Source of the DNA: Syntrophales bacterium
GTDB lineage: Bacteria; Desulfobacterota; Syntrophia; Syntrophales; UBA2210
DNA length: 64,000 bases
NCBI GenBank assembly: GCA_023230565.1
Contig: JALNXD010000005.1
Span: 1,169 to 65,168 of the forward strand
Direction of reading: 5' to 3'
A program made the translations under genes and the position numbers. Positions 23,764 to 42,584 of the stretch are shown in pieces. Each line of letters opens with the position of its first letter. Position 1 is the stretch's first letter. The notes beneath the pieces are model-generated. The model had not been told where the DNA came from, did no database searches, and saw only the letters and a program-made list of their open reading frames with translations.

Positions 23764-23840
<77 letters not shown>

Positions 23841-24123: not shown

Positions 24124-25692
24124 GTGAAGAAATCTTCTCGAAATGTACGTCTAGTAAAGGATAAATTTTCAACAAAAGATCATACGAGTATATTGAATAT
24201 GATCGACGAGCCGTTTTGCATCGTTGAAATGATTTTTGATGAAAACGACAAGCCGATCGACAATTGTTTCCTCGAAGTGAATTCGGCCTTTGAAAGGCAA
24301 ACTGGACTTACCGATGTGGTCGGAAAGAGGATGAGTGAACTTGTGCCGACTCACGAGAACGAGTGGTTCGAGATTTTCGGTAAGGTCGCTTTGACGGGCA
24401 ATCCGATTCGCTTTCAGAGGGCTGCGAAAAATGTAAATCGATTCTATGATGTATACGCCTTCCGTGTAGGCCAGGTCGAGAAACGGCAGGTGGCGATTCT
24501 TTTCAATGATATAACACATCGAAAACACGCAGAGAAAGCAATCGTTTTGCGTCAAAATAAGCTTGAGCGCCTTGTAAAAGAGTGTACGGCCGAACTTGAA
24601 GAAAAGGCCACGCAACTTTCCCGGCTTTCCACTCAACTGACGCTGGCCGAACAGCGCGAACGCCGACGTCTTGCTGAGATTATTCATGATCACGTCCAAC
24701 AGCTTATCGTAAGTGCAAGGTTTCATGTAGAAGCTCTGGCAGAGCGGTTAAAAAATGGAAATGAAACAAATTGCAACAAGATCATCCATATATTGAGCGA
24801 TTGCGAAAAAATCATGCGTTCGCTGAATGCGCAACTCTCTCCCAATGTTCTGTATGAAAGAGGACTGAAAGCCGGAATGAGGTGGCTGGTACGCAACATG
24901 GCCGACATGTACAAGCTGCGCATAGATACTCATATAGATTCGAGTATATTGGTTGAGCGGGATGATGTGAAGGTGCTTTTGTTTGAATCCGTGCGCGAGA
25001 TCCTTTTCAATGCGGCTAAACATGCCGGTACATCATCTGTCAGCATAAAAATGGTCAAAGACGATAAAGAAAATGTTTGTATAACGATAAGCGATCAAGG
25101 GGTCGGATTTAATCCGAAGCATCTTTTTAAAAATACCAGAGACGATACACGTTTCGGTTTGTTAAGCATTCGAGAACGGTTGGAGATCATCGGAGGAAAA
25201 CTAAAAATCGAGAGCTCTCCCGGAAAAGGCTCGGCCTTCCATCTGATCGTTCCCATGAAAAACGTAGTGGACAATTTCGTTTCAGAAGGAGATAATTGTA
25301 ATATGACATTCGGAGGAGTTAACGTAATTAGAGTCTTTCTGGCAGACGACCACACTGTAATGAGAGAGGGCCTTTCGTCCCTCCTGGGGTGCCACTCTGA
25401 CATAAAGGTAATCGGGGAGGCTGAGAACGGCGAGGAAGCCGTTCAAAAGGTGAGGCAGCTTAAACCCGAAGTGGTGCTTATGGACATTAAAATGCCTCAA
25501 ATGGATGGAATCGAAGCGACCAGACTGATCCATTTGGAATTTCCGGACATAAAAATAATCGGGTTATCGATGTTCCATGAAGAAGAGCTTGTGAACGGCA
25601 TATTGAATGCGGGTGCTGTGGCGTTCGTAAATAAAAACGAACCTTCAAGCGTCCTCCTCAAAGCCATCAGGAATTCGATGGATCAAAGTTAA
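24124..25692 (+). CDS. hybrid sensor kinase: PAS, HisKA_3, HATPase and a C-terminal NarL-type receiver without HTH
   Basis: The H-box IHDHVQQL is the HisKA_3 type, and the ATPase region has DQGVGF and GKGSAF. The REC domain has VFLADDH and LMDIKMPQMDG. GTG 24124 follows GAGGGGGG; the ORF is open from 24058. Confidence 0.8.
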   Translation: MKKSSRNVRLVKDKFSTKDHTSILNMIDEPFCIVEMIFDENDKPIDNCFLEVNSAFERQTGLTDVVGKRMSELVPTHENEWFEIFGKVALTGNPIRFQRAAKNVNRFYDVYAFRVGQVEKRQVAILFNDITHRKHAEKAIVLRQNKLERLVKECTAELEEKATQLSRLSTQLTLAEQRERRRLAEIIHDHVQQLIVSARFHVEALAERLKNGNETNCNKIIHILSDCEKIMRSLNAQLSPNVLYERGLKAGMRWLVRNMADMYKLRIDTHIDSSILVERDDVKVLLFESVREILFNAAKHAGTSSVSIKMVKDDKENVCITISDQGVGFNPKHLFKNTRDDTRFGLLSIRERLEIIGGKLKIESSPGKGSAFHLIVPMKNVVDNFVSEGDNCNMTFGGVNVIRVFLADDHTVMREGLSSLLGCHSDIKVIGEAENGEEAVQKVRQLKPEVVLMDIKMPQMDGIEATRLIHLEFPDIKIIGLSMFHEEELVNGILNAGAVAFVNKNEPSSVLLKAIRNSMDQS

Positions 25693-25854
25693 CGTCTCGT
25701 CTTTTTTTAATAATTCCGAGCGTAGGTGTGTCTTTTTTATACAGTATCGGCTCTAATTAGGCGATGCGGCTTCCAGAACGAGGACATCCGGATCACCGGT
25801 TCCGGAGAGATCAGCTGGAGATGTATTGGAGGTGAGAAATTGATTAAACGTGGT

Positions 25855-25876
25855 GCCGGCGGCGAATCCCGCCGGC
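25855..25876. other. GC-rich hairpin in the convergent gap between the hybrid kinase and the GRE
   Basis: GCCGGCGG / CCGCCGGC 8-bp stem with a 6-nt loop. There is no clean U-tract on either strand. Confidence 0.4.
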
Positions 25877-25899
25877 ATAAAACAGAGATTTAATGTTAT

Positions 25900-28350
25900 T
25901 TACAGCCGGTGTTCATTTCTTGCTATTATCCCATCTTGCAGCGGCTTCATGAGACGGGTAAAATAGGCGCTGTATCCGGCAACCTTGACGACCAGATCCC
26001 GATAATTTTCAGGTTCCTGCTGTGCATTCTTCAAGGTCCGGGTATTTAACATGTTAAATTGCACTTGAAGAATATTTTGGTCCACAAAAGCCCTTATGAA
26101 ATCGTTAAAGCGCTTAAGTCCTCCCCGCTGCTGAAAGAAGGCGGGGTCAAATCTCATATTCAGAGTAACGCCTCCGAGCAGCTCAGCGTTATTGATTTTC
26201 CCCATACTGTTGAGCACTGCCGTAGGACCTTCGGTGTCGCAACCGGCACACGGCGACCAGGCATCTGAAAGCGGCGTGCCGTCGGTGCGTCCCGATGGCA
26301 GCGCGCCCACTACCCAGCCTCCGAACATATAATACTGAAGAGGTCCTCCCATCGGGACAGCAAAGCCGCCGCGCGTATTTTTCTGTTTTGATGCTTCTTC
26401 GGCAAACACATGGCTTACCCAGGCTACCTGCTCATCTGCCTCGTCTCTGTCATTTCCGAATTTCGGCATCTCTTTGAGTTTGCGATGCAGGGCTTCGTAG
26501 CCTTCAAAATTGGCTTCCAGAGCTTCACACAATTCTTTCATTGAAACCTTTTTCTCATCAAAGACAAGCTTTCGGATAGCAATAAGGGAGTCGCCTGCGT
26601 CAGTTGATCCGGCACCTACTATAAGAGGATTGAAATTGTAACGTGCCCCCCCTTCTTCACGAGATATACCATTGGCAATGCAATCCTCTATCAGGGCCGA
26701 TTCAAACGGTGTCGGAACAAGATCAGCCAGAGTTTTTTCCAGAATATTACTTGTTTCGGTGTAATTCTTGAGCATGAAGTCAAGCTGCTTACGATAGGCA
26801 TTCTTGAGGTCGTCGAATGTCGAGAACTTGGCAGGATCGCCTGTATCCAGCCCGATTTTCTTTTTGTAATGCCTGCTTGAGCCGTTGGTGAGTACGAGTT
26901 CTAAAATTGCTGCCAGATTCACATATCCACCGAAGCTGTATCCCGCATCCATACCTGAGATAACAGGTTCATAACATCCCACAGGTGTTGCCGTTCGCGC
27001 CAAAGCAAGTGTGACCGGAGGACCGCCCATCGAACCGCGCGCCAGCATCTGCGTCGTAAGGACATCGGCATTCAGATATACAGGATGGCCCATTCCCAGG
27101 GAGCACAATTCACCAGCCTTTTGGAGCAGTTTTTCAGACGTTCGTGCGTGGACAAGAAGACTCAGGTAGGGTTCAGCGAGGCGGACATGCTTCATCCCCT
27201 CAATTAGCATATAGGTGATCTCATTCGTACCGTCGCGACCATCCTCGCGGTATCCGCCCAGCGCTACATGGGTGGCACGGTTCACATGATTCAGTTTTAT
27301 GAGATAGCATTCAATCAGTTCCTGTGCATCTTCTTCAGTCAGTCCGTTTCGCTCTGTGTCATCGAGCAAATATTTGCAGAGATACTGATCGATTCTGCCC
27401 GGTGTCTGAGAAATAATTCGTGGTGCCTCCCAGCTGAGAATTGCCTGAGTAAGGCAGAGGGACTGCAGGGCTTCTTGAAACGTTTTGGCGGGATGAGCCG
27501 GAACTCTCTCGCATATTTCCGCTATTTTCAATAACTCATTTTTGCGCTTTGCATTTTTTTCCTTTACTGAAAGTTCCCTGGCCAGCCTTGCATACCTGCA
27601 GCCGATTTGTGAAGCAGCATCCATGGCAATAATCACCGCAGTGAGAAATTGCTTCTTGTTCTGATCTTTATCTTCAATTTTTGCCAGTGCGATTTCGGCA
27701 TCATTTTTTATTCCTAAAAATCCTTTTTCAAGTACTTTTCTGTAATTGACGGAATTATGACCATAGTGGTTTTCCGCTCCGAAAAACGGAGTGTAAATAA
27801 GCGATTGTTTCGGAGGAAACACAGCTCTATCAATAAATAGAAGTTCTTTAAGTCGATCCGGTACTTTTGAGTAGCTGTATCCCGTCTGGGTTCTGATCCA
27901 GTCGCCATTACCCCGCCAATAGGGGACTATTTCTTCAAGGAATTCCTTCTGATCACTCTCAGGGAAGTCTTTCAGCCCGTACTCCACAGTATCCATCAGC
28001 AGCGGGGCCAATCGCTTACCCGCTACTAATGCAGGGCAGTCCTCGGTAATGACATCCCTGCACAGGGGTCTGATGCCTGCGTGTCCGACGATCAATTCGT
28101 CTTCTCCAATAGTAATAGGCATCCCTTTTGAGATAGCGGCAAAAACTTTTGCCCGCCTGATTATCATTGGTTCACCTTCAGATTGAATCATCTCTCTGGT
28201 TTCGATTCTCAATCTATCTATAGATGCAGTCTGCTGAATTTCCAGATGGCGCTCTCTAAGGCGCTTTATTCTTGGCCGGACTTCCGTTGCCGCAGTGTTG
28301 TTACGGATGTTTCCCAAATCTTCTTTTCTGACAGATACCGGTATTGACAT
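25900..28350 (-). CDS. glycyl-radical enzyme, PFL2/dehydratase-like clade, substrate unknown
   Basis: 816-aa ORF with the C-terminal glycyl radical motif VVKVAGYSAYF (Gly792, codon 25977-25975) and the Cys loop PVGCYEP (Cys459, codon 26976-26974). The N-terminal RIKRLRER...IIRRAKVF...DELIVGH is typical of non-PFL GREs. Confidence 0.9.
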   Translation of the reverse strand: MSIPVSVRKEDLGNIRNNTAATEVRPRIKRLRERHLEIQQTASIDRLRIETREMIQSEGEPMIIRRAKVFAAISKGMPITIGEDELIVGHAGIRPLCRDVITEDCPALVAGKRLAPLLMDTVEYGLKDFPESDQKEFLEEIVPYWRGNGDWIRTQTGYSYSKVPDRLKELLFIDRAVFPPKQSLIYTPFFGAENHYGHNSVNYRKVLEKGFLGIKNDAEIALAKIEDKDQNKKQFLTAVIIAMDAASQIGCRYARLARELSVKEKNAKRKNELLKIAEICERVPAHPAKTFQEALQSLCLTQAILSWEAPRIISQTPGRIDQYLCKYLLDDTERNGLTEEDAQELIECYLIKLNHVNRATHVALGGYREDGRDGTNEITYMLIEGMKHVRLAEPYLSLLVHARTSEKLLQKAGELCSLGMGHPVYLNADVLTTQMLARGSMGGPPVTLALARTATPVGCYEPVISGMDAGYSFGGYVNLAAILELVLTNGSSRHYKKKIGLDTGDPAKFSTFDDLKNAYRKQLDFMLKNYTETSNILEKTLADLVPTPFESALIEDCIANGISREEGGARYNFNPLIVGAGSTDAGDSLIAIRKLVFDEKKVSMKELCEALEANFEGYEALHRKLKEMPKFGNDRDEADEQVAWVSHVFAEEASKQKNTRGGFAVPMGGPLQYYMFGGWVVGALPSGRTDGTPLSDAWSPCAGCDTEGPTAVLNSMGKINNAELLGGVTLNMRFDPAFFQQRGGLKRFNDFIRAFVDQNILQVQFNMLNTRTLKNAQQEPENYRDLVVKVAGYSAYFTRLMKPLQDGIIARNEHRL

Positions 28351-28409
28351 AAATCCTCCATCTTTTCATGTCGGCCGCATAATTTTGACGCAGCTTTTGA
28401 CGAAAGGAG

Positions 28410-28438
28410 AGGATAAAGGAGTGAAAGGCAGATGTCAA
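28410..28438 (-). promoter_or_regulatory. candidate sigma70 promoter for the GRE gene
   Basis: On the minus strand: TTGACA (28438-28433), a 17-nt spacer, then TATCCT (28415-28410). It lies about 60 nt upstream of the GRE ATG. Confidence 0.4.
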
Positions 28439-28616
28439 TGAAAACAGCGGAGGCAAGCTAATTTTTATATTTCAGAACTTTGTAAATTTTATCGGCTCTG
28501 GCTTCGAGGTGGGTAGATATCTGGTGAAAAGAATAAAAATGCAAATAGACACAGGGCATTTTAATCATGTACATCTGAGTGACATTCTATGAACATATAA
28601 TTCGGAAATTCTTCTT

Positions 28617-29792
28617 TTATCCCGGTATATATATTCTGAAGATCTGATCCGGCAAGATAATGGACATTTCCTCGGGAACGATTTTCTTGCCCCTGGAGTC
28701 TCTTATAAGGTGCACTGCTTCTGCGAACGGTATATCGTAGCGTTCCATGAGCTGCTTTCGGACAATTGTATAGAAATTATCGCCTTTTTTTACCCGATAC
28801 ACAAAATACGGGTTTTTCAGGCCAAACCGTTTTCTGGTCTCGGCTGCCACTGCCGGGTCTTTGACTGAGTAGGCATATTCCAATTCCAGAGCCCTTGTGA
28901 GGTCGTACACAACATTCCTGGTATACAGAACGGTTTCTTCTATAAAGGGAAATCCATCCCATGTTTTCGCACTGTTAAGCCCTGCGTTGTAGGCGGCGAT
29001 ACCACGCCACACATTCATTTCCACGGGGCCCCCAAAAACTCTCTGGCATTCAGTGATATCTCTCACTATATGTTTGACCCCTGCGGGTATGAGAAGCTCC
29101 GGGACAAATCTGGCATCGGTTTTTCCGCGTTCTTGTTCGCTCATGCTGTGGATCTTATCGACATAAGCTTTTTTGGCGGAACGCAGATTAGTAAACGCCT
29201 CCGACTTCTTTTCAGTCAGTTCCAGCAGTTCCGATCTGAGGGTATTTATCTTTTCGATGTTCTTTCCGCTTAGATTGCCGGTTCCGCATTCGGCCAGCCC
29301 GTACAATTGCGCCCGCTTCTCCGCAATTGCTGAGCGTAATTCTGAATAGGAGGATATGGATGAATTCAATTGCATAATCTCGTACGATTCGGCTACTGTC
29401 AGTCCGAATTCCCTTGCCGCAGGTTCCATCAGTTGCTGCAGCCCTACAGCGCCGGCCGAAGAGATCGCATCCCATTCGAAGTGTGACTCGTTCCAGATTT
29501 TCGCGACTTCCAACTCTATAAGGAATGGAATTTTCGACAGGTAATCGTTCTTGGGATCGGCGCATGCATCGACTATAAGATGAAAATAATGCTTCATATC
29601 CCTTGATGGAATCGCATCTATAATATGAGGATAGTCTTCCAGGCGCCTGCTCGGGGTTTTTGTAATTTTTTTAACAGAAGAACGGAAAGGAGTGGAGGCC
29701 TGCGACAGCCCGAATCCACCTGCAACTGTAAAGCCTGCTGCCGCCCCTAAAGCCTTTATGAATTGCCGTCTTTTATTGTCCTGTATTCTCAT
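28617..29792 (-). CDS. Tat-signal lytic transglycosylase (SLT domain) with C-terminal LysM-like module
   Basis: 391-aa ORF. The N-terminus NKRRQFIKALGAAAGF is a twin-arginine motif. The SLT catalytic region is ESHFEWDAISSAGAVGLQQLM, and the C-terminal YRVKKGDNFYTIVRKQ is LysM-like. Confidence 0.75.
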   Translation of the reverse strand: MRIQDNKRRQFIKALGAAAGFTVAGGFGLSQASTPFRSSVKKITKTPSRRLEDYPHIIDAIPSRDMKHYFHLIVDACADPKNDYLSKIPFLIELEVAKIWNESHFEWDAISSAGAVGLQQLMEPAAREFGLTVAESYEIMQLNSSISSYSELRSAIAEKRAQLYGLAECGTGNLSGKNIEKINTLRSELLELTEKKSEAFTNLRSAKKAYVDKIHSMSEQERGKTDARFVPELLIPAGVKHIVRDITECQRVFGGPVEMNVWRGIAAYNAGLNSAKTWDGFPFIEETVLYTRNVVYDLTRALELEYAYSVKDPAVAAETRKRFGLKNPYFVYRVKKGDNFYTIVRKQLMERYDIPFAEAVHLIRDSRGKKIVPEEMSIILPDQIFRIYIPG

Positions 29793-30159: not shown

Positions 30160-31638
30160 ATGAATGGCAGCTGTAAAAAGTTAGATGCAATATTCCGTCC
30201 GCGTTCCGTCGCGCTTGTGGGTATAACGACGGCTAATCCTGAACATTGGACACGCGGTTTTCTCGAAGGGTATCTTAAGTTTGATTTTCCGGCCCATGGC
30301 AGATTGTACCTTGTAAACCCAAAAGGTGGAAAATTGGAAGGGTTGGAAGTCTACAAAAGCATTAAAGATATCCCAGACAGTCTGGATTTCGTGGTTGGTC
30401 TTGTGCCTTCAAAAAGTGCTCCACAGTTGATAAAGGATTCGGCAGCAAAAGGGGCCGGGTACATACACTTCTGCACAGCAGGATTCAGCGAAATAGACGA
30501 AGATGAGGGGAAAGAGCTGGAGTCCGAGTTACTGGAAACGGCGCGTAAATACAATGTGAGGATCATAGGCCCGAATTGTCTGGGGGTGTACTGCCCGAAA
30601 GCACGAATGTCATTTAGCGAGCTTTTCCCAAGAGAAAGCGGGAGGGTAGGTTTTATAAGCCAGAGCGGAGGAAATTCCAATTATCTGATACGTCAGTCAG
30701 CCCTTCGCGGCGTACGGTTCAGCAAAGTAATAAGCATAGGAAATGCAAGTGATCTTAATGAGAGTGATTTTCTGGAATATCTGGCTGAAGATCCTGAAAC
30801 GGAAGTTATCGCAATGTACCTTGAGGGTATTAAGAACAGCGACCGTTTTCGCAAGGCACTTGCATACGCAGCAAGAAAAAAATCAATCGTTCTTCTTAAA
30901 GGAGGCGCCACCTCCGCCGGAGCAAGAGCGGTAATGGGACATACGGCATCTATTGCAGGAAGCCGCAGTATTTGGCAAACTTTATGCCGGCAGTTGAATA
31001 TCATACAAGTAGAAAACCTTGATGAAATGGCCGACATGCTTGTCACGCTCAGTTTTCTGCCAGTGCCTGATGGCAGCCGGGTATTATTATTCGGAGGAGG
31101 AGGAGGTTCAAGCGTAATTATTGCGGACGAGTTCGAAAGAAGGGGTCTGACATTGCCCCAATTGCCGGATAAAGTAATTGCTGAGTTGCGCGAATTCAGC
31201 CAGGCTGCTGGAAACTTTTTCAATAATCCCATAGATTACTCCCAGAGCATGGAACCTGCCAATGTAAGAAGAGCACTCGATATACTTTCCCGCTGGGGTG
31301 ATTTTGATTTGATGGTTCACTTTCTGGTTCTTTCTCAGTCCACAAGGGCGGCGGATTTTCCCGGAGGTCCGTTGAAGCTCAGCCATATGCCTTATCCAAC
31401 GGCTGTGGTTGTCGCGATCAGCATTATTCCTGAAGAAACAGATAGAGTATATGAATATGTAAATTACTACGCCAATGAAGGCGTACCCGTCTATTTCTCA
31501 TATGCCAGCGCAGCCAATGCTATTAAAAAAGTAATATTACATTACCGTGGGCGCGAGTTGCACGAGAAGCGAACATCTGAACACCAGCATCGTCTGTACG
31601 GAGGGAATTCTGAAGTTGATCTCGGACTGTGCTCTTAA
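30160..31638 (+). CDS. CoA-binding / succinyl-CoA-synthetase-like protein (alpha-type portion of ADP-forming acyl-CoA synthetase)
   Basis: 492-aa ORF with a CoA-binding N-terminus (RPRSVALVGIT...VNPKGG...VYKSIKDIP), GPNCLG, ISQSGG, and a putative phosphohistidine loop MGHTASIAGS. Confidence 0.75.
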   Translation: MNGSCKKLDAIFRPRSVALVGITTANPEHWTRGFLEGYLKFDFPAHGRLYLVNPKGGKLEGLEVYKSIKDIPDSLDFVVGLVPSKSAPQLIKDSAAKGAGYIHFCTAGFSEIDEDEGKELESELLETARKYNVRIIGPNCLGVYCPKARMSFSELFPRESGRVGFISQSGGNSNYLIRQSALRGVRFSKVISIGNASDLNESDFLEYLAEDPETEVIAMYLEGIKNSDRFRKALAYAARKKSIVLLKGGATSAGARAVMGHTASIAGSRSIWQTLCRQLNIIQVENLDEMADMLVTLSFLPVPDGSRVLLFGGGGGSSVIIADEFERRGLTLPQLPDKVIAELREFSQAAGNFFNNPIDYSQSMEPANVRRALDILSRWGDFDLMVHFLVLSQSTRAADFPGGPLKLSHMPYPTAVVVAISIIPEETDRVYEYVNYYANEGVPVYFSYASAANAIKKVILHYRGRELHEKRTSEHQHRLYGGNSEVDLGLCS

Positions 31639-31677
31639 ATCTTCAAGTAACCTTTCTATCGATTGCTGCAGCATCAG

Positions 31678-31891: not shown

Positions 31892-32809
31892 ATGGACTTC
31901 ATACGAGGGATGATAAGTAAAATAGAAAGATTTTCTGTTCATGATGGTCCAGGTATACGCACTCTGGTTGTGCTGAAAGGATGTCCGTTAAAATGCCTGT
32001 GGTGTTCATCACCTTATACACAAAACCCCGGGCAGGAACTTCTTTACGTCAAACGCAATTGCCAGGGCTGCGGGATTTGCATACCTTCATGCCCGCAAAA
32101 GGCGATTGCCATGGACGCTGACAATAAGTATGTGAAAACTGATCGCTCTGTCTGCACTGGTTGCGGGAATTGCGTCTCGGTATGCCCAAATGGAGCGCGT
32201 GAAATATCGGGGCGACATTATACCTCTGAAGAACTTCTTCATGAATTAGAAAAGGATGCCGTGTTTTTCAGGCGAAGCGGGGGCGGGGTTACTATTGGCG
32301 GAGGGGAACCGACAATGCAGGCCGAGTTTGTAAGGGACATTCTTTTTCGCTGCCGGAGGCTGCATATCCATACGGCTATGGAAACTTCAGGGTTCACCTC
32401 GTGGACGAAATTCTCGTCGATATTGGAACACCTTGATCTTTTATATATGGATATAAAACATATGGAAGAAAAGAAACACATTGAGATCACAGGAGTTTCA
32501 AACAGACTAATACTGCAAAACGCAAGGAACGCATCGGAGCACAATGAAATTATCCTGAGATTGCCGGTTATTCCGGGGTTAAACGATTCGGAAAAAAATA
32601 TTTTGAAAACTGCGTCATTTGCAAGGAGTCTCGGAAAAAACATTTTACGGCTGGAACTTCTCCCTTATCACCAGTTTGGTGAGCACGGATATGATGAACT
32701 GGAAAGAACTTATACGCTTGAAAAAATCAAAGAGCCGCCGGATGAGCATATGAAGCGGCTGCAAGAGATTGCCCGCACTGCCGATATTGAGGTTGCAGTA
32801 GGTGGATAG
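31892..32809 (+). CDS. glycyl-radical enzyme activating protein (radical SAM)
   Basis: 305-aa ORF with the CPLKCLWC radical-SAM cluster motif, two ferredoxin-like motifs (CQGCGICIPSCP, CTGCGNCVSVCP) and a GGEP SAM motif. Confidence 0.9.
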   Translation: MDFIRGMISKIERFSVHDGPGIRTLVVLKGCPLKCLWCSSPYTQNPGQELLYVKRNCQGCGICIPSCPQKAIAMDADNKYVKTDRSVCTGCGNCVSVCPNGAREISGRHYTSEELLHELEKDAVFFRRSGGGVTIGGGEPTMQAEFVRDILFRCRRLHIHTAMETSGFTSWTKFSSILEHLDLLYMDIKHMEEKKHIEITGVSNRLILQNARNASEHNEIILRLPVIPGLNDSEKNILKTASFARSLGKNILRLELLPYHQFGEHGYDELERTYTLEKIKEPPDEHMKRLQEIARTADIEVAVGG

Positions 32810-32848
32810 TGAATCTTTCGCATATTTATTCAGAAGCTTTTTGTGATT

Positions 32849-34731: not shown

Positions 34732-34867
34732 TGCGCGAGGGCGAAAGATTGTATCTTTGCGAGGCCTCCTGAACTTCTTCAATGTTCATAATTGCGGGAG
34801 CTGCTCACAGGCCCGGTTATGGAGCCGGTCAGAAAATAATAAAGCGGGAAAACTTTCATGCTAAAAA

Positions 34868-34891
34868 GAGGAGCGGTGACAGCCGCTCCTC
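34868..34891. terminator. bidirectional terminator hairpin between the convergent CoA ligase genes
   Basis: 9-bp stem GAGGAGCGG / CCGCTCCTC flanked by an A-run upstream and TCTTT downstream. Confidence 0.6.
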
Positions 34892-34918
34892 TCTTTGCTT
34901 CCACATCGAGTGAACGTG

Positions 34919-36442
34919 TCATTGTACTTGTTTGACGAGCTCTCTTTTCAATACTTTACCGGAGGCATTTCGCGGAAGATTTTCCGTAAAAATGAACTTC
35001 CTCGGTATCTTGTATTTCGCCAGATTTTCCTTGCAGTACGCCAGAACTTCATCTTCAGACATTTGGCTTGCAGGTGTGAGAACGATGAAGGCATTTACGG
35101 TTTCACCCCATTTTTCATCAGGCGTTCCGACCACAGCTGCTTCGGCAATTTTCTGATTGAGAAGAAGCACTTCTTCAATTTCTCTGGGATATATGTTTTC
35201 ACCCCCGCTTATTATCATATCTATTTTGCGATCCACCAGGTATAAATAATGTTCATCATCCCAGCGACCCATATCTCCAGTGTGCAGCCAGCCATTCCGT
35301 ATCGTTTTGGCTGTCGCTTCCGGCTTGTTATAATAGGAACTGATGCATTGAGCGCTTGAAACCGCAACCTCACCAACTTCACCAGCCGGAACATCATTAT
35401 CATCATCGTCGACAAGCCTTATGTTTACACCAAATATAACCTGGCCGACACAATTTACTTTCCGACGCTGATCTGCATGCCGTAAATTGGTTATGGCGCC
35501 TGCTTCGGTAGAACCATAATATTCATTGAGATCGGCATTTGGAAATGAATGCAATATTTTCAGCTTTGTTGAATCCGGAAGAGGTGCGCCGACTGAAATA
35601 AGAACCCTTAATGATGACAGATCATAGTGATCTATTTCCGGATAGGTTGCGGCAGATTCCCACATTGTGGGAACCATGAACACAGTGGTGATTTTTTCTT
35701 TCTGAAAATTATCGAGTACTCCTTTAATGTCAAAATGTTTCATGATGACCACACTTCCGCCCATCAATAGGTGACTAACCGAAATATGAAGAGCAGCTGA
35801 GTGAAACGCCGGGCCCACACAAAGGAAAATATCAGCATAATTAAGCTTCCATTCAGTCAGCCCTGCCACAGTACTCGCATGCATTCTATTAGTGAACACG
35901 GCACCTTTGGGAAATCCTGTGGTGCCGGATGTGTAAATCAGGGATACCGGATCGTTTTCACGTATTGTATGGTGCGGCAGATCCTTGGAACTGTCAGCCA
36001 GAAAATTTTCATAATCGACTGCATAATCGGGACATTTTTTTTCAAATCCGACATGAATAAACAGTTTCACTTTATCAAGACTTGATTTGATACTTTCCAC
36101 GGCATCCTGAAAATCTTCCGTAAAAATGAAGGCAACAGTATCGGAATCATCAAGAATATAGATCAATTCTCTGCCGACAAGGCGGAAATTGATCGGTACC
36201 ATGACCGCTCCGATTTTGCAGCAAGCGACATATAATTCAAAAAAATGCTGGCAGTTATATGCCAGTATTGAAACTTTATCACCTTTCATCACGCCCTGTT
36301 TCAAAAGTGCGTTGGCAAGCTGATTTGTTCTGTCCCTCCACTGCATGTAGGTAAAACGCCGGCCCTCGAAGGTTAAGGCAATTTTATCGGGTTCGTTCCA
36401 TGCCATACGTTCCTGCTCTTGTCCTAAGCTCGTTAACTCCAT
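34919..36442 (-). CDS. AMP-forming acyl-CoA ligase (FadD/medium-chain-like)
   Basis: 507-aa ORF with IYTSGTTGFPKGAV, YGSTE, WLHTGDMG, DRKIDMIISGGENIYP and SGKVLKREL. Confidence 0.87.
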   Translation of the reverse strand: MELTSLGQEQERMAWNEPDKIALTFEGRRFTYMQWRDRTNQLANALLKQGVMKGDKVSILAYNCQHFFELYVACCKIGAVMVPINFRLVGRELIYILDDSDTVAFIFTEDFQDAVESIKSSLDKVKLFIHVGFEKKCPDYAVDYENFLADSSKDLPHHTIRENDPVSLIYTSGTTGFPKGAVFTNRMHASTVAGLTEWKLNYADIFLCVGPAFHSAALHISVSHLLMGGSVVIMKHFDIKGVLDNFQKEKITTVFMVPTMWESAATYPEIDHYDLSSLRVLISVGAPLPDSTKLKILHSFPNADLNEYYGSTEAGAITNLRHADQRRKVNCVGQVIFGVNIRLVDDDDNDVPAGEVGEVAVSSAQCISSYYNKPEATAKTIRNGWLHTGDMGRWDDEHYLYLVDRKIDMIISGGENIYPREIEEVLLLNQKIAEAAVVGTPDEKWGETVNAFIVLTPASQMSEDEVLAYCKENLAKYKIPRKFIFTENLPRNASGKVLKRELVKQVQ

Positions 36443-37095
36443 CCTTTATCTCCTTTTATGATTTGCAAAAAGACTTGTCGCGCAAGTCATTCAGTTTTTT
36501 CACGAATGCAGTTCGGATAATTGCAGTCTTGTAAAATAAATAATTCCACTGAAATATCAAATTTATACAATACAATCACCTGTCGAGGTTTTTCGGAGTC
36601 ATCCAACTTTATTTTACTCAAAGCAGGTTGTTCATGTCCGGTGTTGCAATTCCACTCTTCAGCAAATGATGCCAAACGGGTAAGGAACTATATGAAGAGG
36701 CTGACAGTTGTCAAGAAATTTAAATCTCACTCCGCCTCATGCCTGATGATCGTATAGGAGTTCAGGGGAGGCTTTTTCAAATTGGAAACCATGAATCATA
36801 ATGTGCTGTCCATATTTTAACTGTCATCTTGACAGGGAGTCTATTCGATGCTAATCGGGAACCTGCTTACACGCAATGAAATAATTACGAAATTGGATAT
36901 TTTCAGCGGCGGTTTTTTTATGAAACGGAAGGTCGCGTTCCAGTAATTATATGAGATGAGGTTTTTCAGAGGTTGATGGATTTGCTTCGTATCGATGTAC
37001 TTGCTCATGCGCTTCCCGTAACTCCCTCATGCGCATTTCACCATTATTTCAAATAGTTTTGAAAAAATTATATATGTAAAAAGGATCGTACCAAA

Positions 37096-38688
37096 ATGAT
37101 AAAGGATACAAGAAAAATACTATTATTTCTAATTTCATTTCTATTTCTTCTTATCTCGTGCCTGCCGTTTCATAGCGCATGGGGCGGGGAGGAGCTGCGA
37201 ATCGCAGACAGTGCAGGAGATTGGGGGTACCCCAATCCATTCAGACATTATCCAAGAGGCCCCGGGTATGTACGCATGAGTTTTATTTTTGATACACTGA
37301 TCTGGAAGAATAATAATGGCTTTATCCCCGCACTTGCTGAGTCTTGGAATTACAATCCTTCAGATATGACATTTACTTTTCATCTCAATTCAAACGCGAA
37401 GTGGCACGACGGAAAACCTGTCACGGGGGAAGATGTTGCTTTCACGGTGGAGTATTTCCGAACGCATCCATATCGCTTTATAAAAATAGCCGATATAGAA
37501 GACGTGCAACCGGAAGACGGCAACACTGTAGTATTCAGGCTTTCTACCCCGTATGCGCCTTTTTTATCGATAATAGGCGCGAGTATGCCTATATTGCCAA
37601 AGCATATCTGGGAAACTGTTGAAAAACCCGAGGTGTACGATGATCCCAAAGCATTTGTAGGCAGTGGCCCGTATCTTTTCGGAGATTTTGATAAGACAAA
37701 GGGGACTTACCTGTACCGGGCTTTTGTCGACTACTATCTCGGGTGTCCAAAAGTGGACAGACTGATTTATATACGTTCGGCCAACCCTCTGCTTTCTTTG
37801 ACTTCCGGAGAGGCCGATCTGGCCAACATACGGCCTGAAATGGCAAAACACCTGGCAAAGAAAGGTATGACGGTGATCAGCGACGAACATGGATGGGTTA
37901 AAAAGCTTATGGTAAATCATAAAAAGTGGCCTCTGAGTGAAACTCGATTTCGCAAAGCTCTTGCCTATGCCATAAATCAAAGCGAGATAATCGAAAAAAG
38001 CCACAGAGGATTTGCTTCACCTGCATCATACGGCTTGCTTTCAGTGGATCACGAAATGTACAACCCTGCTGTCCCGACATATCCCTATAATCCAGCCAAA
38101 AGTATTCAACTTTTAGAATCCCTCGGTTTTACAAAAAATCAATCAGGGATGTTTCAAAAAAACGGCAAAGAATTAAAGCTGGAACTGCTTTGTTCCACTA
38201 TCACTGCTGCCGGTGAAAACGTTGCTGACAGAGATGGAGAAGTAATAAAAAATCAGTTGCAACATATTGGAATTGAAATTGAACTCATTCACATGGAACG
38301 AACGACGGCAGATGTGCACATAAAAAAGTGGGATTTTGATCTGGCCCTTTCCGGACATGGAGGAATCACCGGAGATCCTGTTATCATGAACCAGATGATT
38401 TTATCCTCCTATGGAGGTGGATCCGTAAACAGCTCCCGATATGATGAAAATCGGCAATTGAATGAGATCCTGGAAAAATCAGTATCCGAAATGGATCATA
38501 AAAAAAGAACAGAGCTCGTGTATGAAGCCCAGATGATTTATGCGACTGAATTGCCTTCAATTGCATTGTACTACCCGCATGCCTTTTCCGCCTATAATCC
38601 GGAAAAGAGCGTACACTGGTTTTATACAAAGGGCGGTATGGCAACGGGAATACCTATTTCTCAAAATAAAACCGCATTGATACGATAG
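37096..38688 (+). CDS. ABC transporter substrate-binding protein, family 5 (peptide/nickel/opine type)
   Basis: 530-aa ORF with an N-terminal signal/anchor (ILLFLISFLFLLISC) and overall DppA/OppA-like SBP_bac_5 character (WHDGKPVTGEDVAFT). Confidence 0.85.
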   Translation: MIKDTRKILLFLISFLFLLISCLPFHSAWGGEELRIADSAGDWGYPNPFRHYPRGPGYVRMSFIFDTLIWKNNNGFIPALAESWNYNPSDMTFTFHLNSNAKWHDGKPVTGEDVAFTVEYFRTHPYRFIKIADIEDVQPEDGNTVVFRLSTPYAPFLSIIGASMPILPKHIWETVEKPEVYDDPKAFVGSGPYLFGDFDKTKGTYLYRAFVDYYLGCPKVDRLIYIRSANPLLSLTSGEADLANIRPEMAKHLAKKGMTVISDEHGWVKKLMVNHKKWPLSETRFRKALAYAINQSEIIEKSHRGFASPASYGLLSVDHEMYNPAVPTYPYNPAKSIQLLESLGFTKNQSGMFQKNGKELKLELLCSTITAAGENVADRDGEVIKNQLQHIGIEIELIHMERTTADVHIKKWDFDLALSGHGGITGDPVIMNQMILSSYGGGSVNSSRYDENRQLNEILEKSVSEMDHKKRTELVYEAQMIYATELPSIALYYPHAFSAYNPEKSVHWFYTKGGMATGIPISQNKTALIR

Positions 38689-38745
38689 CGGGAAGAGAAG
38701 TGTCCATTTGTATTGAAAAGAAACTGGCAAAATACATCAATAAAA

Positions 38746-39741
38746 ATGAAAATGGAAGGTAAGGAATTAAGAATAAAGACTTTTTTATCTCATAATACAC
38801 GCAGGATAATGACATATCTGATTGCAGCCTTTCTTCTCATTCTGCTTGGCTATTATCTTCCCCGCGTGCTGCCAGGCGATTATGTGACGGCAATGTATTC
38901 ACAGTCCCAGGCGATTATTACCGAGGAGGAGGAAGCCTGGTTGAAGGCCGAGTATGCAGATAAGGAGAGCTTCTGCGAATATATCATTGCTCTTGTGACG
39001 CTGGATTGGGGTTATTCTTTAGTTTTTTCGGAGCCTGTTTCAGATCTTATTTTTTCGGCGCTTCCCTGGACCTTGTTTCTGTTAGGGAGCGCTCATCTGC
39101 TTGCGATGATAATCGGATTTATTGCAGGCGTTGAAGCAGCGTGGAGGCGGGGTCCTCTCGAAAAGCTCTCTGTCGGGTTGATGACTTTTCTTGAAGGTGC
39201 TCCTGAAATTGCGACGGGCATTCTGCTGCTTTTTATTTTCGCTCTTGTGCTGGGATGGTTTCCCGCAGCCGGAGGAGAAACAGCATACGCCGGATATGGA
39301 ATGTTCAGATGGGGACTAGATGTTTTGTATCATACAATACTGCCCTTTATTACTCTTTTTTTCGCCTATTTGCCTGGTAATTTTCTTCTCGCAAGAGGCT
39401 CAATGATAGTTATCCTAAAATCGCCATTTTTGAAAACCGCCTATGCAAAAGGCCTCCCTTCATTAAGAGTGCGGTACGGTCATGGGGCGCGCAACGCTCT
39501 GTTGCCTGTTGTTACCCGTTTTGGTCTGAGGTTTTCATTCATGCTCACCGGGGCTTTAGTGGTCGAAACTATTTTTTCATATCCCGGTTTGGGCACCTTG
39601 CTTTTCAAATCGATCGCACTCAGGGATCTTCCTTTGATACAGGCTATTGTCCTGTTTTCCTCTTTGCTTGTTCTTACTGTCAACATAGCCCTTGAAATAT
39701 GCTACAGATTCCTGGATCCACGGGTGAGAAATGAAACATAA
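38746..39741 (+). CDS. ABC transporter permease (DppB/OppB-like)
   Basis: Multi-TM ORF with LPGD near the N-terminus and the EAA-like region TAYAKGLPSLRVRYGHGARNALLP. The start is uncertain (open from TTG 38713; ATGs at 38746 and 38752). Confidence 0.82.
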   Translation: MKMEGKELRIKTFLSHNTRRIMTYLIAAFLLILLGYYLPRVLPGDYVTAMYSQSQAIITEEEEAWLKAEYADKESFCEYIIALVTLDWGYSLVFSEPVSDLIFSALPWTLFLLGSAHLLAMIIGFIAGVEAAWRRGPLEKLSVGLMTFLEGAPEIATGILLLFIFALVLGWFPAAGGETAYAGYGMFRWGLDVLYHTILPFITLFFAYLPGNFLLARGSMIVILKSPFLKTAYAKGLPSLRVRYGHGARNALLPVVTRFGLRFSFMLTGALVVETIFSYPGLGTLLFKSIALRDLPLIQAIVLFSSLLVLTVNIALEICYRFLDPRVRNET

Positions 39742-40567
39742 TATCTTCAATGTGCTTATAATCAACAGGTGGTTCGTTTTTGGAATTATACTGGCCGTTC
39801 TTTTGGTTATCGTATTTACGGCAGGTGCCTGGTTTTCCCGGTATGATCCATATAATGCCTCATTCAGTCCGCTCAGTCCGCCATCAGCCCGGCACTGGCT
39901 AGGGGTAAACGATGGAGGCATGGATATATTTTCAGAGTTGATGTACGCAGTCAGAAATACAGTTTTGTTTGGGGTTCTTTCTGCTGCGGCCGCCCTTGCA
40001 CTCGGAATATTCGCAGGATTGACAGCTGCCTGGAAAGGTGGATTGACAGGAAATATTTTGATGCGGTTGTCCGAGGTCATAATGTCTGTTCCACCGGTAA
40101 TGATCATGATTATAGTCGCATCGTTTATGCGACCTTCTGCTGTTACGCTTGCCTTTACGCTTTCTCTTGTTTCCTGGCCTACGACAGCAAAAGCGATCCG
40201 GTCTCAGGCGCTCGCTTTGCGGGAAAGAATGCATGTAAGGGCCGCAAGAGATATGGGGGGGACCAGCAGCTATATAATAGTACGACATCTTTTACCGGAA
40301 TTATTCCCGCTGTATTTAATCGGTTTCATCGCCAAATTACGCATGGCGGTCTTCATGGAGGCATCTTTGGCGTTTCTGGGGCTTTTCGATCCTGCAAGAA
40401 AGTCAATCGGTTCAATGATTCGCTACGCGCTGCAGTATTATTATCTGGACGTATGGCTGAATTGGCTTATTCCGCCTGTTGTATGTTTCAGTCTGATCAT
40501 TATGAGCATTACGTTTCTCGCGATAAGTCTTGAGGAAGTATTTGATCCAAGGCTCAAGGAAATTTGA
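39731..40567 (+). CDS. ABC transporter permease (DppC/OppC-like)
   Basis: 278-aa multi-TM ORF with HWLGVNDGGMDIFS and the EAA-like AARDMGGTSSYIIVRHLLPE. It overlaps the upstream permease gene by 11 nt. Confidence 0.85.
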   Translation: MKHNIFNVLIINRWFVFGIILAVLLVIVFTAGAWFSRYDPYNASFSPLSPPSARHWLGVNDGGMDIFSELMYAVRNTVLFGVLSAAAALALGIFAGLTAAWKGGLTGNILMRLSEVIMSVPPVMIMIIVASFMRPSAVTLAFTLSLVSWPTTAKAIRSQALALRERMHVRAARDMGGTSSYIIVRHLLPELFPLYLIGFIAKLRMAVFMEASLAFLGLFDPARKSIGSMIRYALQYYYLDVWLNWLIPPVVCFSLIIMSITFLAISLEEVFDPRLKEI

Positions 40568-40568
40568 A

Positions 40569-42584
40569 ATGGTTGAAATAGAGAATTACTCTGCAGTTTA
40601 TCAAGACGGAAATCACTCTCTTCTGGCACTGGATAGAGTTACTTTTTCTTTAAATGAAGGGTATATTACAGTGCTTATAGGGGAATCCGGATCGGGAAAA
40701 ACAACGATGGCAAATGCAATAATGGGGCTTCTTCCAAAAAATACGGTCACCGAAGGCAGCATACGGCTGAACGGTGATGAACTTACGCACCTGGATGACG
40801 ATTCCTACCGCAAATTACGATGGCGTACAATGGCAATGGTATTTCAAAATAGTGCAGCTGTTCTCAATCCAGTGCAGCGTATCGTAAATCAGGTAGCAGA
40901 ACCCTTAATATACCATTTAGGTATCAAAAAAGAAGAAGCCCTTCAAATAACCGAAAAAAAACTTGCCCACATGTCTATTTCTTCAGATGAAATGTTTCGT
41001 TATCCTCATGAATTAAGCGGCGGCCAGATTCAGAGAACACTCTTTGCAATGGCACTTATTCTCAATCCACGGGTGCTGATCCTGGATGAACCGACTTCCG
41101 CTATGGATGCGGCTCTAAAAGCATTTATGATTTCTTTACTAAAAGAGCTTAAGTCGAAAGGAACGGCAATTCTGCTCATAACTCATGATCTTGATCTTGC
41201 GGTAAAAACGGCCGACGAGGCGATAATGTTGTATCTCGGCCAAATAATGGAGGTTCTGCCGGCTCGCGATCTTATGCAAACCCTCTTCCATCCTTGTACA
41301 GTTGCGATGTGCCGCTCTTTTCCGACAATGGATGCAGTAAGGGATCTGGGAGGTATGCGTGGTGACGCGTTTTATCGTTATACACATGTTCACAGGCTTA
41401 GCGACGGAAAAACGGAGCCGCATGTGCATATTGCTGCAGGAGCGGATAGAGAGGGCGGACATGCACCTATACTTGGATGTCTGTTCCGGCCTCGCTGCAC
41501 ACAAGCGGTGGAGGAATGCGGAAGAACATCAATTCAGCTTACTCAGGCCGGAACGCATAAAGTGCGGTGTGTGCGGGGGGGGATTGTCGATCTTCTTCAA
41601 TTGAAACAGATTAAAAAGGCGTACGGCAGGATTACGGCGGTCGATAATGCCAGTGTATCGCTTCGTGCAGGTGAGATTCTTACAATCGTAGGTGAAACAG
41701 GATCAGGAAAAACAACACTTGCGATGATAGCCGCCGGTGCCATTGAGCAAGACTCAGGGATGAGAACATTTAAAGATCGCACTATTGATGAATGGATTAA
41801 AAACGAGCGTTTCTCCTTTGCATCCGAAGTTGGGATTATCTATCAAAATCCGGCTGAATCGGTCAGCCATCGCTTTACTGTCTATGATATTGTGGCGGAA
41901 CCGCTGCATATTCAAAATAAGTCTTCAGGCGCAGCAGCCAGTAAAAAAAGAAGCGGGACACAAAATGAAGAAGAAAGAAAAAAAGTGCTCAATGCATTGA
42001 CTGATGTTCATCTGCCGGTTGAGCCCGATTTTCTCATGCGTCACCCTCATGAACTAAATATGGGCGCCATTCAGCGTTTATGCATTGCCCGTGCGTTAGT
42101 ACATGATCCCGTGCTTATCGTGGCCGATGAACCGACAAGCGCGCTGGATCCCAGTGTGCAGGCCAAAGTAATAAAATTACTTTTAAATCTTCAGATTGAA
42201 AAAGGATTGACCATTATTTTTGTAACCCATGACATCGGTGTTGCACGGAAGATAAGCGATCGCATATGTGTGATGCTCGCAGGACGGATAGTAGAAATTG
42301 GTCCTGCTTCAAAAATAATCAATGAACCCCGTCATCCGTATACGGAGCTTCTTATTGATAGTGCACGAGGAGAATTAATTCACTTTGAATCACCGAAAAG
42401 TGAGCAATCGGTAAGTCCGGACGGCTGCCCTTTTGCGAATAGATGCAGCCGGCGTGTTGGTAAATGTCTCGAGATGAATCCGCCGTGCAGTAATGTGCAA
42501 GGACAATCACATTTATTCTGGTGTTTCAATCCGGTAGTCCTTTTTTCATACGACAAAAAAATGAGAACTGACGGGGAGAAATAA
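40569..42584 (+). CDS. fused double ABC ATPase (DppD-DppF-like in one polypeptide)
   Basis: Start trimmed to ATG 40569, 1 nt after the upstream stop. It has two Walker A motifs (GESGSGKT, GETGSGKT), two signature motifs (LSGGQIQR and a degenerate LNMGAIQR) and two Cys-rich C-terminal oligopeptide-transporter-type tails. Confidence 0.85.
   Translation: MVEIENYSAVYQDGNHSLLALDRVTFSLNEGYITVLIGESGSGKTTMANAIMGLLPKNTVTEGSIRLNGDELTHLDDDSYRKLRWRTMAMVFQNSAAVLNPVQRIVNQVAEPLIYHLGIKKEEALQITEKKLAHMSISSDEMFRYPHELSGGQIQRTLFAMALILNPRVLILDEPTSAMDAALKAFMISLLKELKSKGTAILLITHDLDLAVKTADEAIMLYLGQIMEVLPARDLMQTLFHPCTVAMCRSFPTMDAVRDLGGMRGDAFYRYTHVHRLSDGKTEPHVHIAAGADREGGHAPILGCLFRPRCTQAVEECGRTSIQLTQAGTHKVRCVRGGIVDLLQLKQIKKAYGRITAVDNASVSLRAGEILTIVGETGSGKTTLAMIAAGAIEQDSGMRTFKDRTIDEWIKNERFSFASEVGIIYQNPAESVSHRFTVYDIVAEPLHIQNKSSGAAASKKRSGTQNEEERKKVLNALTDVHLPVEPDFLMRHPHELNMGAIQRLCIARALVHDPVLIVADEPTSALDPSVQAKVIKLLLNLQIEKGLTIIFVTHDIGVARKISDRICVMLAGRIVEIGPASKIINEPRHPYTELLIDSARGELIHFESPKSEQSVSPDGCPFANRCSRRVGKCLEMNPPCSNVQGQSHLFWCFNPVVLFSYDKKMRTDGEK

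Follow-up and report, generated by a model that had tools for sequence, protein, structure and literature searches.

An uncharacterised clade of glycyl radical enzymes linked to a CoA ligase in a Syntrophales bacterium and other anaerobes

The window studied here, a 64,000-nucleotide stretch of a metagenome-assembled genome (MAG) from a Syntrophales bacterium (3.45 Mb, 98% complete; contig C5, positions 1169-65168), encodes an 816-residue glycyl radical enzyme (GRE), its activase and an AMP-forming CoA ligase, lig573. The GRE belongs to a known superfamily and probably to a known reaction class. It stands apart by its membership of a distinct clade, by a pocket that has been altered, by genomic surroundings undescribed for any GRE (2026 GRE review), and by a scattered range of relatives that includes Asgard archaea. 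Gene content, catalytic motifs, clade placement and the conserved linkage of GRE, activase and ligase are direct observations. We see about an even chance that these three genes are the core of the locus, a rearranged catabolic unit in which the GRE would act as a 1,2-eliminase on a hydroxylated or halogenated, CoA-activated carboxylic acid. The reaction type is suggested by the catalytic residues; which class of substrate is used, and whether ligation precedes or follows elimination, are matters of conjecture.

GREs carry out chemistry that anaerobes otherwise cannot, and every newly assigned clade has so far brought a new pathway to light (choline, hydroxyproline, sulfonates, anhydro-sugars). 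Whole clades are still unassigned, especially ones that reach into archaea (2026 GRE review). The clade described here is common to Syntrophales, Desulfobacterota and Asgard archaea and provides testable candidate substrates relevant to carbon cycling in sediments and digesters. We see in its loci a genuine lead towards a new route of anaerobic degradation.

A GRE apart from those characterised

Genes were called from an open reading frame (ORF) listing together with ARAGORN, Pfam (domain threshold E<=0.001) and NCBIfam, and public gene calls were concordant. Every gene named in a first-pass annotation of the stretch was recovered where it had been placed. The features of the core are as follows.

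25900..28350, minus strand: GRE, 816 aa, basal member of the GRE1 clade; Pfam PFL-like and Gly_radical
31892..32809, plus strand: GRE activase, radical SAM protein with ferredoxin-like cluster domains; TIGR02494, 337 bits against a cut-off of 174
33010..34731, plus strand: lig573, AMP-forming CoA ligase of 573 aa; Pfam AMP-binding and AMP-binding_C
34867..34892, no strand: hairpin between convergent ligase genes, stem of 11 pairs, 7 of them G-C; a likely bidirectional terminator, judged from its sequence

The GRE combines a PFL-like barrel (PF02901, 1e-162, 543 bits) with a C-terminal glycine-radical domain (PF01228, 6e-26, 91.6 bits), in which VKVAGYSAYF stands for the RVxG[FWY]-type motif. 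It misses the NCBIfam PFL2-3 subfamily (TIGR01774, 527 against a cut-off of 678), and every NCBIfam equivalog score is at most half its cut-off (HypD 503/1100, CutC 418/1050, HpsG 480/1000, HpfG 415/1000, PFL 396/1109, IAD 347/1100, HPAD 264/1150). The best solved relatives are the glycerol dehydratase (GD) of Clostridium butyricum (PDB 1R8W/1R9D, 5e-134) and propanediol dehydratase (PD; 5I2A and the microcompartment enzyme 9RCO, 2e-123), with CutC and HypD also among them. By BLASTP, identity is 35% to GD, 35% to PD, 33% to HypD, 32% to PflD and 31% to YbiW, the GD, PD and HypD sequences having been rebuilt from an alignment print-out that lacks their termini.

In a tree of 72 rows (quick IQ-TREE run, LG+G4, SH-aLRT support alone), the window GRE is the first branch of a 13-row clade, here called GRE1, with support of 100. 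GRE1 and a set of multi-copy sediment paralogues together make up 22 rows, and their sister is a 10-row clade containing a second type, GRE2, and a GRE from contig C2 of the same genome. The resulting 32-row superclade, again with support of 100, leaves out all five characterised enzymes. The suggestion of the first-pass annotation that this GRE stands apart from characterised ones is thus borne out, both by a separate, well-supported clade and by identities of just 31-35%.

Database homologues reach at most 66% identity and come from Promethearchaeota/Lokiarchaeota, Desulfobacteraceae, 'Deltaproteobacteria' and Syntrophales MAGs. GRE1 was present in 2 of the 37 genomes of the same family that were searched, namely this genome and another of its genus (G001), each with two copies, and in 0 of 400 other genomes sampled across the phylum. 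GRE1 is a rare and uncharacterised clade, scattered over Syntrophales, Desulfobacteraceae and Asgard archaeal MAGs.

Several further GRE genes were seen along the way. Contig C22 of this genome (14902-21577; L015, L020) carries a second GRE1 (64% identical) and a GRE2 of 838 aa with a Peripla_BP_6 gene between them; four more Peripla_BP_6 genes and a multihaem-type cytochrome c surround the pair, and the 48.8-kb contig has no activase. The GRE on C2 (133649-138818; L014) is a third type of 799 aa with a GCHEP loop, 43-47% identical to the window GRE and directly preceded by an activase of its own and two short-chain dehydrogenases. A marine sediment contig (LAZR01000216.1, L024) holds five full-length GRE paralogues on 17 kb (51-55% to the window GRE), interspersed with three proteins of 267-288 aa, an unusual local amplification.

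Three candidate relatives were set aside. PDB 9RCO has the same length of 816 aa but functions as a propanediol dehydratase of a microcompartment; no GRE is encoded in the ORM2 benzene 'Magic' cluster (PMC13101534); and limonenylsuccinate synthase (PMC12583861) is an unrelated fumarate-adding enzyme.

Dehydratase-type catalytic residues in a different pocket

The window GRE was aligned with GD, PD and HypD, and also within the superclade; HypD numbering carries an offset of 20, verified against Cys434. The positions of interest are listed below.

Gly792: glycyl radical site, in VKVAGYSAYF, from motif alignment
Cys459-Tyr460-Glu461: thiyl loop, GCYEP (GCNEP in GRE2, GCHEP in the C2 paralogue)
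His198: equivalent of GD His164, also aligned to the PD and HypD histidines
Ser314: equivalent of GD Ser282
355-362: site of a 15-residue deletion; the loop with GD Tyr339 / HypD Phe340 is absent
Phe473: equivalent of GD Asp447
Gly669: equivalent of GD Tyr640

GCYEP, with Cys459 and Glu461, is invariant in 16 clade members, as is typical of GRE 1,2-eliminases and isomerases; in all of these enzymes the glutamate of the Cys-x-Glu motif hydrogen-bonds the substrate hydroxyl (2026 GRE review). His198 occupies the position of GD His164, the general acid of C-O-cleaving dehydratases, which protonates the leaving hydroxyl (2026 GRE review). The glycine motif, Cys-x-Glu and the equivalents of His164 and Ser282 are kept in all GRE1 and GRE2 sequences. 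The window GRE thus resembles GD and PD in its fold, in these residues and in the type of its activase (TIGR02494). It differs from GD at the small-diol pocket, where the Tyr339 loop is deleted and Asp447 and Tyr640 are replaced by Phe and Gly, and from both dehydratases in the middle residue of the motif, which is Tyr rather than Val. We conclude from these alignments that the GRE probably combines dehydratase-type catalytic machinery with a differently shaped, and probably larger, pocket.

The surroundings differ as well. The window GRE belongs to a separate clade and is linked to a CoA ligase, and unlike the loci of GD and PD its block of genes (24124-42584) lacks microcompartment, aldehyde dehydrogenase and 1,3-propanediol dehydrogenase genes. 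Neither Pfam and NCBIfam nor the public gene calls place a microcompartment shell, aldehyde dehydrogenase or sulfite reductase gene in the block, in agreement with the first-pass annotation, and Pfam assignments for the block and its 10-kb flanks include no shell protein, aldehyde dehydrogenase or phosphotransacylase, the hallmarks of GRE-associated microcompartments (GRM). HypD (PDB 6VXC, with the related HpyG/HpzG) gives the GRE its top equivalog score and shares Cys-x-Glu and the histidine. It differs in that the Phe340 loop is absent from the window GRE, identity is 33%, and genes of proline metabolism, for instance P5C reductase, are lacking at the locus. Against the HypD-activase model the activase reaches 332 bits where the cut-off is 425, and like the HypD score of the GRE this falls far short. 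The sulfo-lyases IslA, IseG and HpsG hold the sulfonate with an Arg-x3-Gln pair and a second Arg. Around the histidine of the GRE the sequence is ENHYGHNS, in which a comparison of motif spacing shows neither Arg nor Gln where they would be expected.

The same evidence bears on two other reactions. The GRE could be a ring-opening isomerase like HplG, YbiW and PflD, cleaving a ring C-O or C-N bond beside the carbinol of a cyclic acid. Isomerases share the Cys-x-Glu motif (2026 GRE review), and PflD lies near GD and PD in the tree, so the two chemistries interleave. PflD and YbiW, the E. coli 1,5-anhydrohexitol-6-phosphate isomerases, are PFL2-type enzymes that take larger charged substrates and work without a microcompartment. 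Yet they are only 31-32% identical to the window GRE, their gene context consists of phosphotransferase system (PTS) and aldolase genes as against ligases at GRE1 loci, no sugar-phosphate, PTS or aldolase genes lie nearby here, and His198 sits where dehydratases have their general acid. We consider an isomerase very unlikely.

Alternatively, the GRE could be a fumarate-adding X-succinate synthase that activates hydrocarbons. Its homologues do occur in Asgard and Desulfobacterota sediment MAGs, and such roles have reportedly been proposed for PFL-like genes of these groups. Against it stand the eliminase motif, PDB matches to BSS and MASS (1e-77 to 1e-81) that are much weaker than those to the dehydratases, the lack of bbs-type beta-oxidation genes, and the lack of small subunits encoded beside the GRE. 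On this last point the first-pass annotation was right: no small Cys-rich ORF suited to encode a BSS-type subunit was found in the gaps adjoining the GRE. Fumarate addition is therefore extremely improbable, and a 1,2-elimination remains the reaction that we favour.

Linkage of GRE1 to its activase and to lig573

For related loci, genes were taken from crude calls of the longest ORFs and named by BLAST against reference proteins, and precomputed Pfam lists were used in addition. By sequence, the protein encoded at 31892-32809 is assigned as the cognate activase of the GRE: it lies 3.5 kb away on the other strand, and in L001-L006 the activases encoded immediately upstream of the GRE1 orthologues share 57-61% identity with it. 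The order activase-GRE1-GRE2 recurs in L001-L006, L011, L021, L022 and L102, where GRE2 is a protein of 836 aa, 45% identical to GRE1 and complete in its catalytic residues. An AMP-forming ligase lies within 10 kb of GRE1 in 9 of the 12 distinct loci examined, which upholds the link between GRE and CoA ligase that had been proposed; none of the GRE pathways listed in the 2026 GRE review includes a CoA ligase. Other recurrent neighbours are a MimR_N sigma-54 activator, large Peripla_BP_6 proteins (directly 3' of lig573-type ligases), DUF1330 proteins and alpha/beta hydrolases. A literature search returned nothing relevant joining glycyl radical enzymes and DUF1330. The window has none of these recurrent neighbours, nor GRE2, and its copy is a stripped-down, rearranged version of the GRE1 cluster. 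Although sigma-54 activators flank the related clusters, the window contains 27 matches to sigma-54 promoters where 27.9 are expected, none of them convincing in the gaps between genes.

Both AMP-forming ligases of the block, lig573 and lig507, have the AMP-binding and AMP-binding_C domains of ANL acyl-CoA ligases. In a PDB search lig573 was remote from all solved ligases; its family is very large and labelled carnitine-CoA ligase by JGI, and it misses the CaiC equivalog (224 against 651). Its top database relatives are P0124 (68%, BIN3 contig, L005), P0126 (67%, SURF_4, L003), P0127 (67%, L102) and a protein of L021 (67%), and all 4 of the closest relatives with readable context are adjacent to GRE1. 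The genome's own lig573 paralogues are more distant (63, 59 and 51%). That the nearest relatives of lig573 are neighbours of GRE1 elsewhere, while its paralogues at home are further away, is the strongest argument for a functional coupling of GRE1 with lig573 and for their travelling together. GRE1 moves between distant anaerobes with its activase and one particular CoA ligase. In the window, lig573 is the likeliest partner of the GRE in a pathway.

Among lig573 relatives at 65% identity the link to GRE1 is lost and a core of sigma-54 regulator, ligase and Peripla_BP_6 protein stays, followed by pairs of enoyl-CoA hydratase and NMO genes (L103) or by a carboxyltransferase (L104). These sigma-54(MimR_N)-ligase-Peripla_BP_6 cassettes of Desulfobacterota include ligases of the same family as lig573, and the sisters keep both regulator and binding protein; lig573 in the window, in contrast, has neither beside it, and family-5 importer genes lie nearby. 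Since the sister ligases sit with acyl-CoA cassettes (enoyl-CoA hydratase, NMO, carboxyltransferase), the lig573 family feeds CoA-ester pathways.

It could still be that the adjacency is coincidental, with GRE and activase standing alone and acting on a small neutral alcohol, and with the ligases, the ADP-forming acyl-CoA synthetase alpha-type protein (ACD-alpha) and the importer belonging to unrelated modules for organic-acid uptake, of which this genome has a great many. More than 20 AMP-ligase hits and 16 ACD-alpha hits were counted in the genome; on C2 a family-5 importer is again accompanied by a pair of ligases, in an operon that contains no GRE; the importer is conserved elsewhere without a GRE; and GRE1 occurs without a ligase in G001:C1 and L023. 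Against coincidence, however, the closest relatives of lig573 come from three other lineages, sit beside GRE1 and resemble lig573 more closely than do the genome's own paralogues, most GRE1 loci have a ligase within 10 kb, the glycerol-binding positions of GD are lost, and the block has no aldehyde or alcohol dehydrogenase to take up a small aldehyde product. We judge coincidence unlikely and continue to prefer a coupled GRE, activase and lig573.

Three observations on related loci are added here. L103 and L010 (G001:C2:843731-866175) share the same upstream genes (SBP_bac_8 ATP-binding cassette (ABC) system, Fe-ADH, xanthine/uracil permease) and differ in the cassette that follows: one of the two genomes has activase-GRE1-GRE2-ligase, the other sigma-54 activator, lig572, Peripla_BP_6, enoyl-CoA hydratase, NMO, enoyl-CoA hydratase, NMO. 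As L103 occupies the site of the GRE cassette of L010, cassettes appear to be exchanged behind a common uptake and activation front end. In the BIN3 cluster (L005:13137-14471) a 444-aa protein is encoded between GRE1 and lig573; it has no Pfam match and a weak N-terminal match to the Desulfovibrio-type outer-membrane porin NF033939 (40 bits against a cut-off of 250). Contig C7 of this genome (47988-52194; L017/L018) carries an orphan activase paralogue, 44% identical to that of the window and with no GRE beside it, among a 1047-aa sigma-54 activator, a Liv-type ABC system, two Peripla_BP_6 proteins, an enolase-superfamily protein, a carboxyltransferase and two ligases, one of them the 59% paralogue of lig573. 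This activase may serve the activase-less GREs on C22.

Proposed reaction and candidate substrates

In the mechanism that we favour, the activase would install the radical on Gly792, and the resulting Cys459 thiyl radical would take a hydrogen from the carbinol carbon of the substrate. Glu461 would deprotonate the hydroxyl to give a ketyl radical, His198 would protonate the leaving group (OH, OR or halide) on the neighbouring carbon, and its departure would yield a carbonyl product whose radical regains hydrogen from Cys459. The substrate would be a larger hydroxylated carboxylic acid, possibly bearing a halohydrin or diol, and not glycerol or propanediol. Either this acid or the GRE product would be converted by lig573 to a CoA thioester for further oxidation. 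The importer, lig507, ACD-alpha, SLT protein and kinase are neighbours in a variable segment rather than demonstrated members of the pathway.

A lead on the substrate comes from hydrolases in related clusters. Haloalkane-dehalogenase family proteins are encoded in the SURF_4 and BIN3 clusters (NF002043, 450 and 303 bits against a cut-off of 265), with the signatures HGEPxW and QDWGG (Asp-Trp), and the hydrolase of L002/L011 has epoxide-hydrolase-like motifs (HGWP, GHDWGG); in all, genes of the dehalogenase/epoxide-hydrolase type lie in the GRE1-GRE2 clusters of L002, L003, L004/L005 and L011. Two dehalogenase-type gene pairs in this genome (C9:6687-8950 and C3:80734-83012) are 59-80% identical to genes of those clusters. 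The C9 pair adjoins a sigma-54 activator and a ligase, and the C3 pair adjoins CbbQ/VWA genes (84% and 53% to BIN3 genes downstream of GRE2) and an ACD-alpha-like gene. The GRE and hydrolase components therefore co-occur in the genome but are dispersed. Enzymes of these types yield an alcohol beside a remaining halide or hydroxyl, as a GRE 1,2-eliminase needs. Our literature search found no paper linking GREs with haloalkane dehalogenases. These genes support, without proving, hydroxylated or halogenated carboxylic acids as the candidate substrate class.

Taken further, GRE1, together with GRE2 where there is one, might supply the radical step in a route that needs neither oxygen nor reductant and that handles carboxylic acids with a halogen, an epoxide or a vicinal diol: a dehalogenase or epoxide hydrolase would make the halohydrin or diol, the GRE would eliminate halide or water, possibly on the CoA thioester, and the carbonyl product would enter beta-oxidation. 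We think this full route quite unlikely; if true, it would bring a new GRE substrate class, a new logic of anaerobic dehalogenation and possibly the first acyl-CoA GRE.

The order of the two steps is where another reading enters, in which lig573 acts first and the GRE takes up the resulting CoA thioester directly. It would then carry out a radical elimination on a hydroxyacyl-CoA and be the first GRE with an acyl-CoA substrate. The minimal conserved operon (L021, L102) consists of a sigma-54 regulator and activase-GRE1-GRE2-ligase-binding protein, with no further enzymes, and at the same kind of site sister ligases precede enoyl-CoA hydratases and NMO proteins that act on CoA esters. The loop deletion, Gly669 and Phe473 would also imply a much larger pocket. 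On the other hand, the GRE showed no CoA-binding feature, thioesters are not the substrate of any characterised eliminase or isomerase (2026 GRE review), and ligation after elimination explains the gene content equally well. Elimination on the thioester is doubtful in our view. A thioester or halohydrin substrate, if confirmed, would widen the known scope of GRE catalysis.

Several points weigh against the elimination and coupling that we favour. Three of the 12 GRE1 loci (L001, the C22 copy of this genome, and G001:C1/L023) have no ligase within 10 kb, and some ligase adjacency is expected by chance because the genome has more than 20 AMP-ligase genes. The tandem GRE2, usual elsewhere, is missing from the window, where moreover the GRE is inverted and divergent relative to activase-lig573, with two unrelated genes (SLT, ACD-alpha) between them. 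In the closest relative of the same genus (G001:C1, L023), the GRE has a serine hydrolase and a ferredoxin-nitroreductase as neighbours, and neither a ligase nor an activase is near. No dehalogenase or epoxide-hydrolase gene occurs in the window, the genome's pairs being on C9 and C3. Finally, it is on the strength of structural papers that GD Tyr339, Asp447 and Tyr640, like HypD Phe340, are presumed to line the pocket.

Neighbouring genes outside the conserved set

The remaining genes of the block had been combined with the core, in the first-pass annotation, into one pathway with three CoA-activating proteins, a dedicated importer and a sensor kinase. GRE, activase and lig573 stay together, but the importer, ACD-alpha, lig507 and kinase are not conserved with the GRE, so the putative pathway is smaller than proposed.

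24124..25692, plus strand: hybrid histidine kinase with C-terminal receiver; HATPase_c 2e-13, Response_reg 2.5e-25
28617..29792, minus strand: SLT-domain protein; SLT 1.9e-11, N-terminus MRIQDNKRRQFIKALGAAAG
30160..31638, plus strand: ACD-alpha-type protein; CoA_binding_2 and Succ_CoA_lig
34919..36442, minus strand: lig507, AMP-forming CoA ligase of 507 aa, FadD/feruloyl-CoA-synthetase type; NF004837, 520.8 bits against 476
36443..37095, no strand: non-coding divergent region of 653 bp; no credible ORF, no Rfam match
37096..42584, plus strand: family-5 ABC importer operon (Pfam, NCBIfam), as follows
37096-38688, plus strand: SBP_bac_5 (substrate-binding protein)
38713-39741 and 39731-40567, plus strand: two permeases
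40530-42584, plus strand: fused double ATPase

The family-5 importer appears from its distribution to be an independent module. The four-gene operon is intact (49-58% identity) in two genomes, G019 and G053, which lack GRE1 and the adjacent ligases, and related GRE1 clusters carry Peripla_BP_6 binding proteins instead, so that the importer cannot be called dedicated to the GRE. The 653-bp gap described in front of it is present, with its best sigma-70-like sites at 36714-36687(-) and 37094-37067(-) and no sigma-54 promoter above chance.

The closest PDB matches of lig507 are FadD5, FadD13 and feruloyl-CoA synthetase (1e-83 to 1e-88). A 73% paralogue heads an importer operon on C2, which continues with a family-5 substrate-binding protein, two permeases, two ATPases, a lig573 paralogue (63%), a Peripla_BP_6 protein and another ligase; the transporter proteins are 26-32% identical to those of the window. 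A sigma-54 activator faces this operon, and between the operon and the C2 GRE lie genes for BipA, CofD and phosphoglucomutase. As lig507, family-5 importer and lig573 paralogue recur in this separate, sigma-54-controlled operon, lig507 is best assigned to the importer module and not to the GRE.

ACD-alpha does not reach the cut-off of TIGR02717 (326 against 567); its PDB matches are 2csu and 4xyl. The window encodes no ATP-grasp beta partner that would complete a functional holoenzyme; the genome has 16 ACD-alpha hits and 7 ATP-grasp_5 hits, 0 of the 7 on this contig. The lone other case near a GRE, a 43% ACD-alpha 5 kb from GRE2 in L002, lies beside a sirtuin and makes no pattern. Membership in the pathway is thus not upheld, as the gene is neither conserved next to the GRE nor accompanied by a partner.

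The kinase had been described as a PAS/HisKA_3 hybrid. A hybrid kinase with a receiver is present, but Pfam detects no PAS domain at the threshold used, and the HisKA_3 match (21.4 bits) falls below its cut-off of 24. A 73% paralogue on C18 stands at a contig end with an uninformative context, and nothing ties the kinase to the GRE. Similarly, the protein annotated as a Tat-exported SLT/LysM protein has the SLT domain and a twin-arginine-like motif at its N-terminus (KRRQFIK), but no LysM by Pfam. In G001:C1 and L023 an SLT orthologue (59-60%) is found at a distance of 4-9 kb from that of the GRE, and the two genes keep company there (59-60% and 64-65%). We read this as a local synteny with the GRE within the genus, and the SLT protein is probably not catalytic in the pathway.

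A variable segment behind a tRNA gene

23764..23840, plus strand: tRNA-Met(CAT), initiator-type, left edge of the lineage-specific segment; ARAGORN, Rfam tRNA 62.8 bits
42807..43448, plus strand: 213-aa gene, last of the variable segment, no Pfam or NCBIfam match; genes from 43526 on are collinear in G008

The tRNA beside the block had been called tRNA-fMet, and its sequence agrees, with a C1/U72 mismatch and three G-C pairs (GGG/CCC) in the anticodon stem. It was the sole match in an Rfam scan at E<=0.1. An orthologue lies behind the same REC-cyclase gene in G001 and in G008, a genome of the same family and another genus. Both flanks are collinear in G008: the order LptFG ... kinase, REC-cyclase, tRNA-Met is kept, and the genes of 43526-48579 have counterparts in unchanged order further on, with about 33 kb of unrelated genes intervening after tRNA-Met. 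In G001 the upstream flank alone is kept, ending at the same tRNA-Met, with unrelated genes thereafter. Because synteny with both genomes breaks there, we infer that 24058-43448 is a lineage-specific filling of a variable site by tRNA-fMet, which bears out the accessory character ascribed to the block. Pfam and NCBIfam place no integrase domain in the block, the 3' end of the tRNA occurs once with no repeat, and there is no compositional shift (G+C 0.44-0.48 in the block against 0.41-0.45 in the flanks). The segment is a synteny break with no recognisable mobile island.

Between tRNA and kinase gene (23841-24123) there are a hairpin, GGGGTTACGGAGATTGTTCTCCGTAGCCCC, and a spacer of 280 bp, rich in A, in which sigma-70-like sites come near to the consensus (TTGACA-16-CATAAT at 23981-24008). 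In G001, the orthologue (72%) of the window's permuted phosphoglycerate mutase (C2:240206-241783) was reported with one in-frame TAG, which may be a MAG assembly error or a real disruption.

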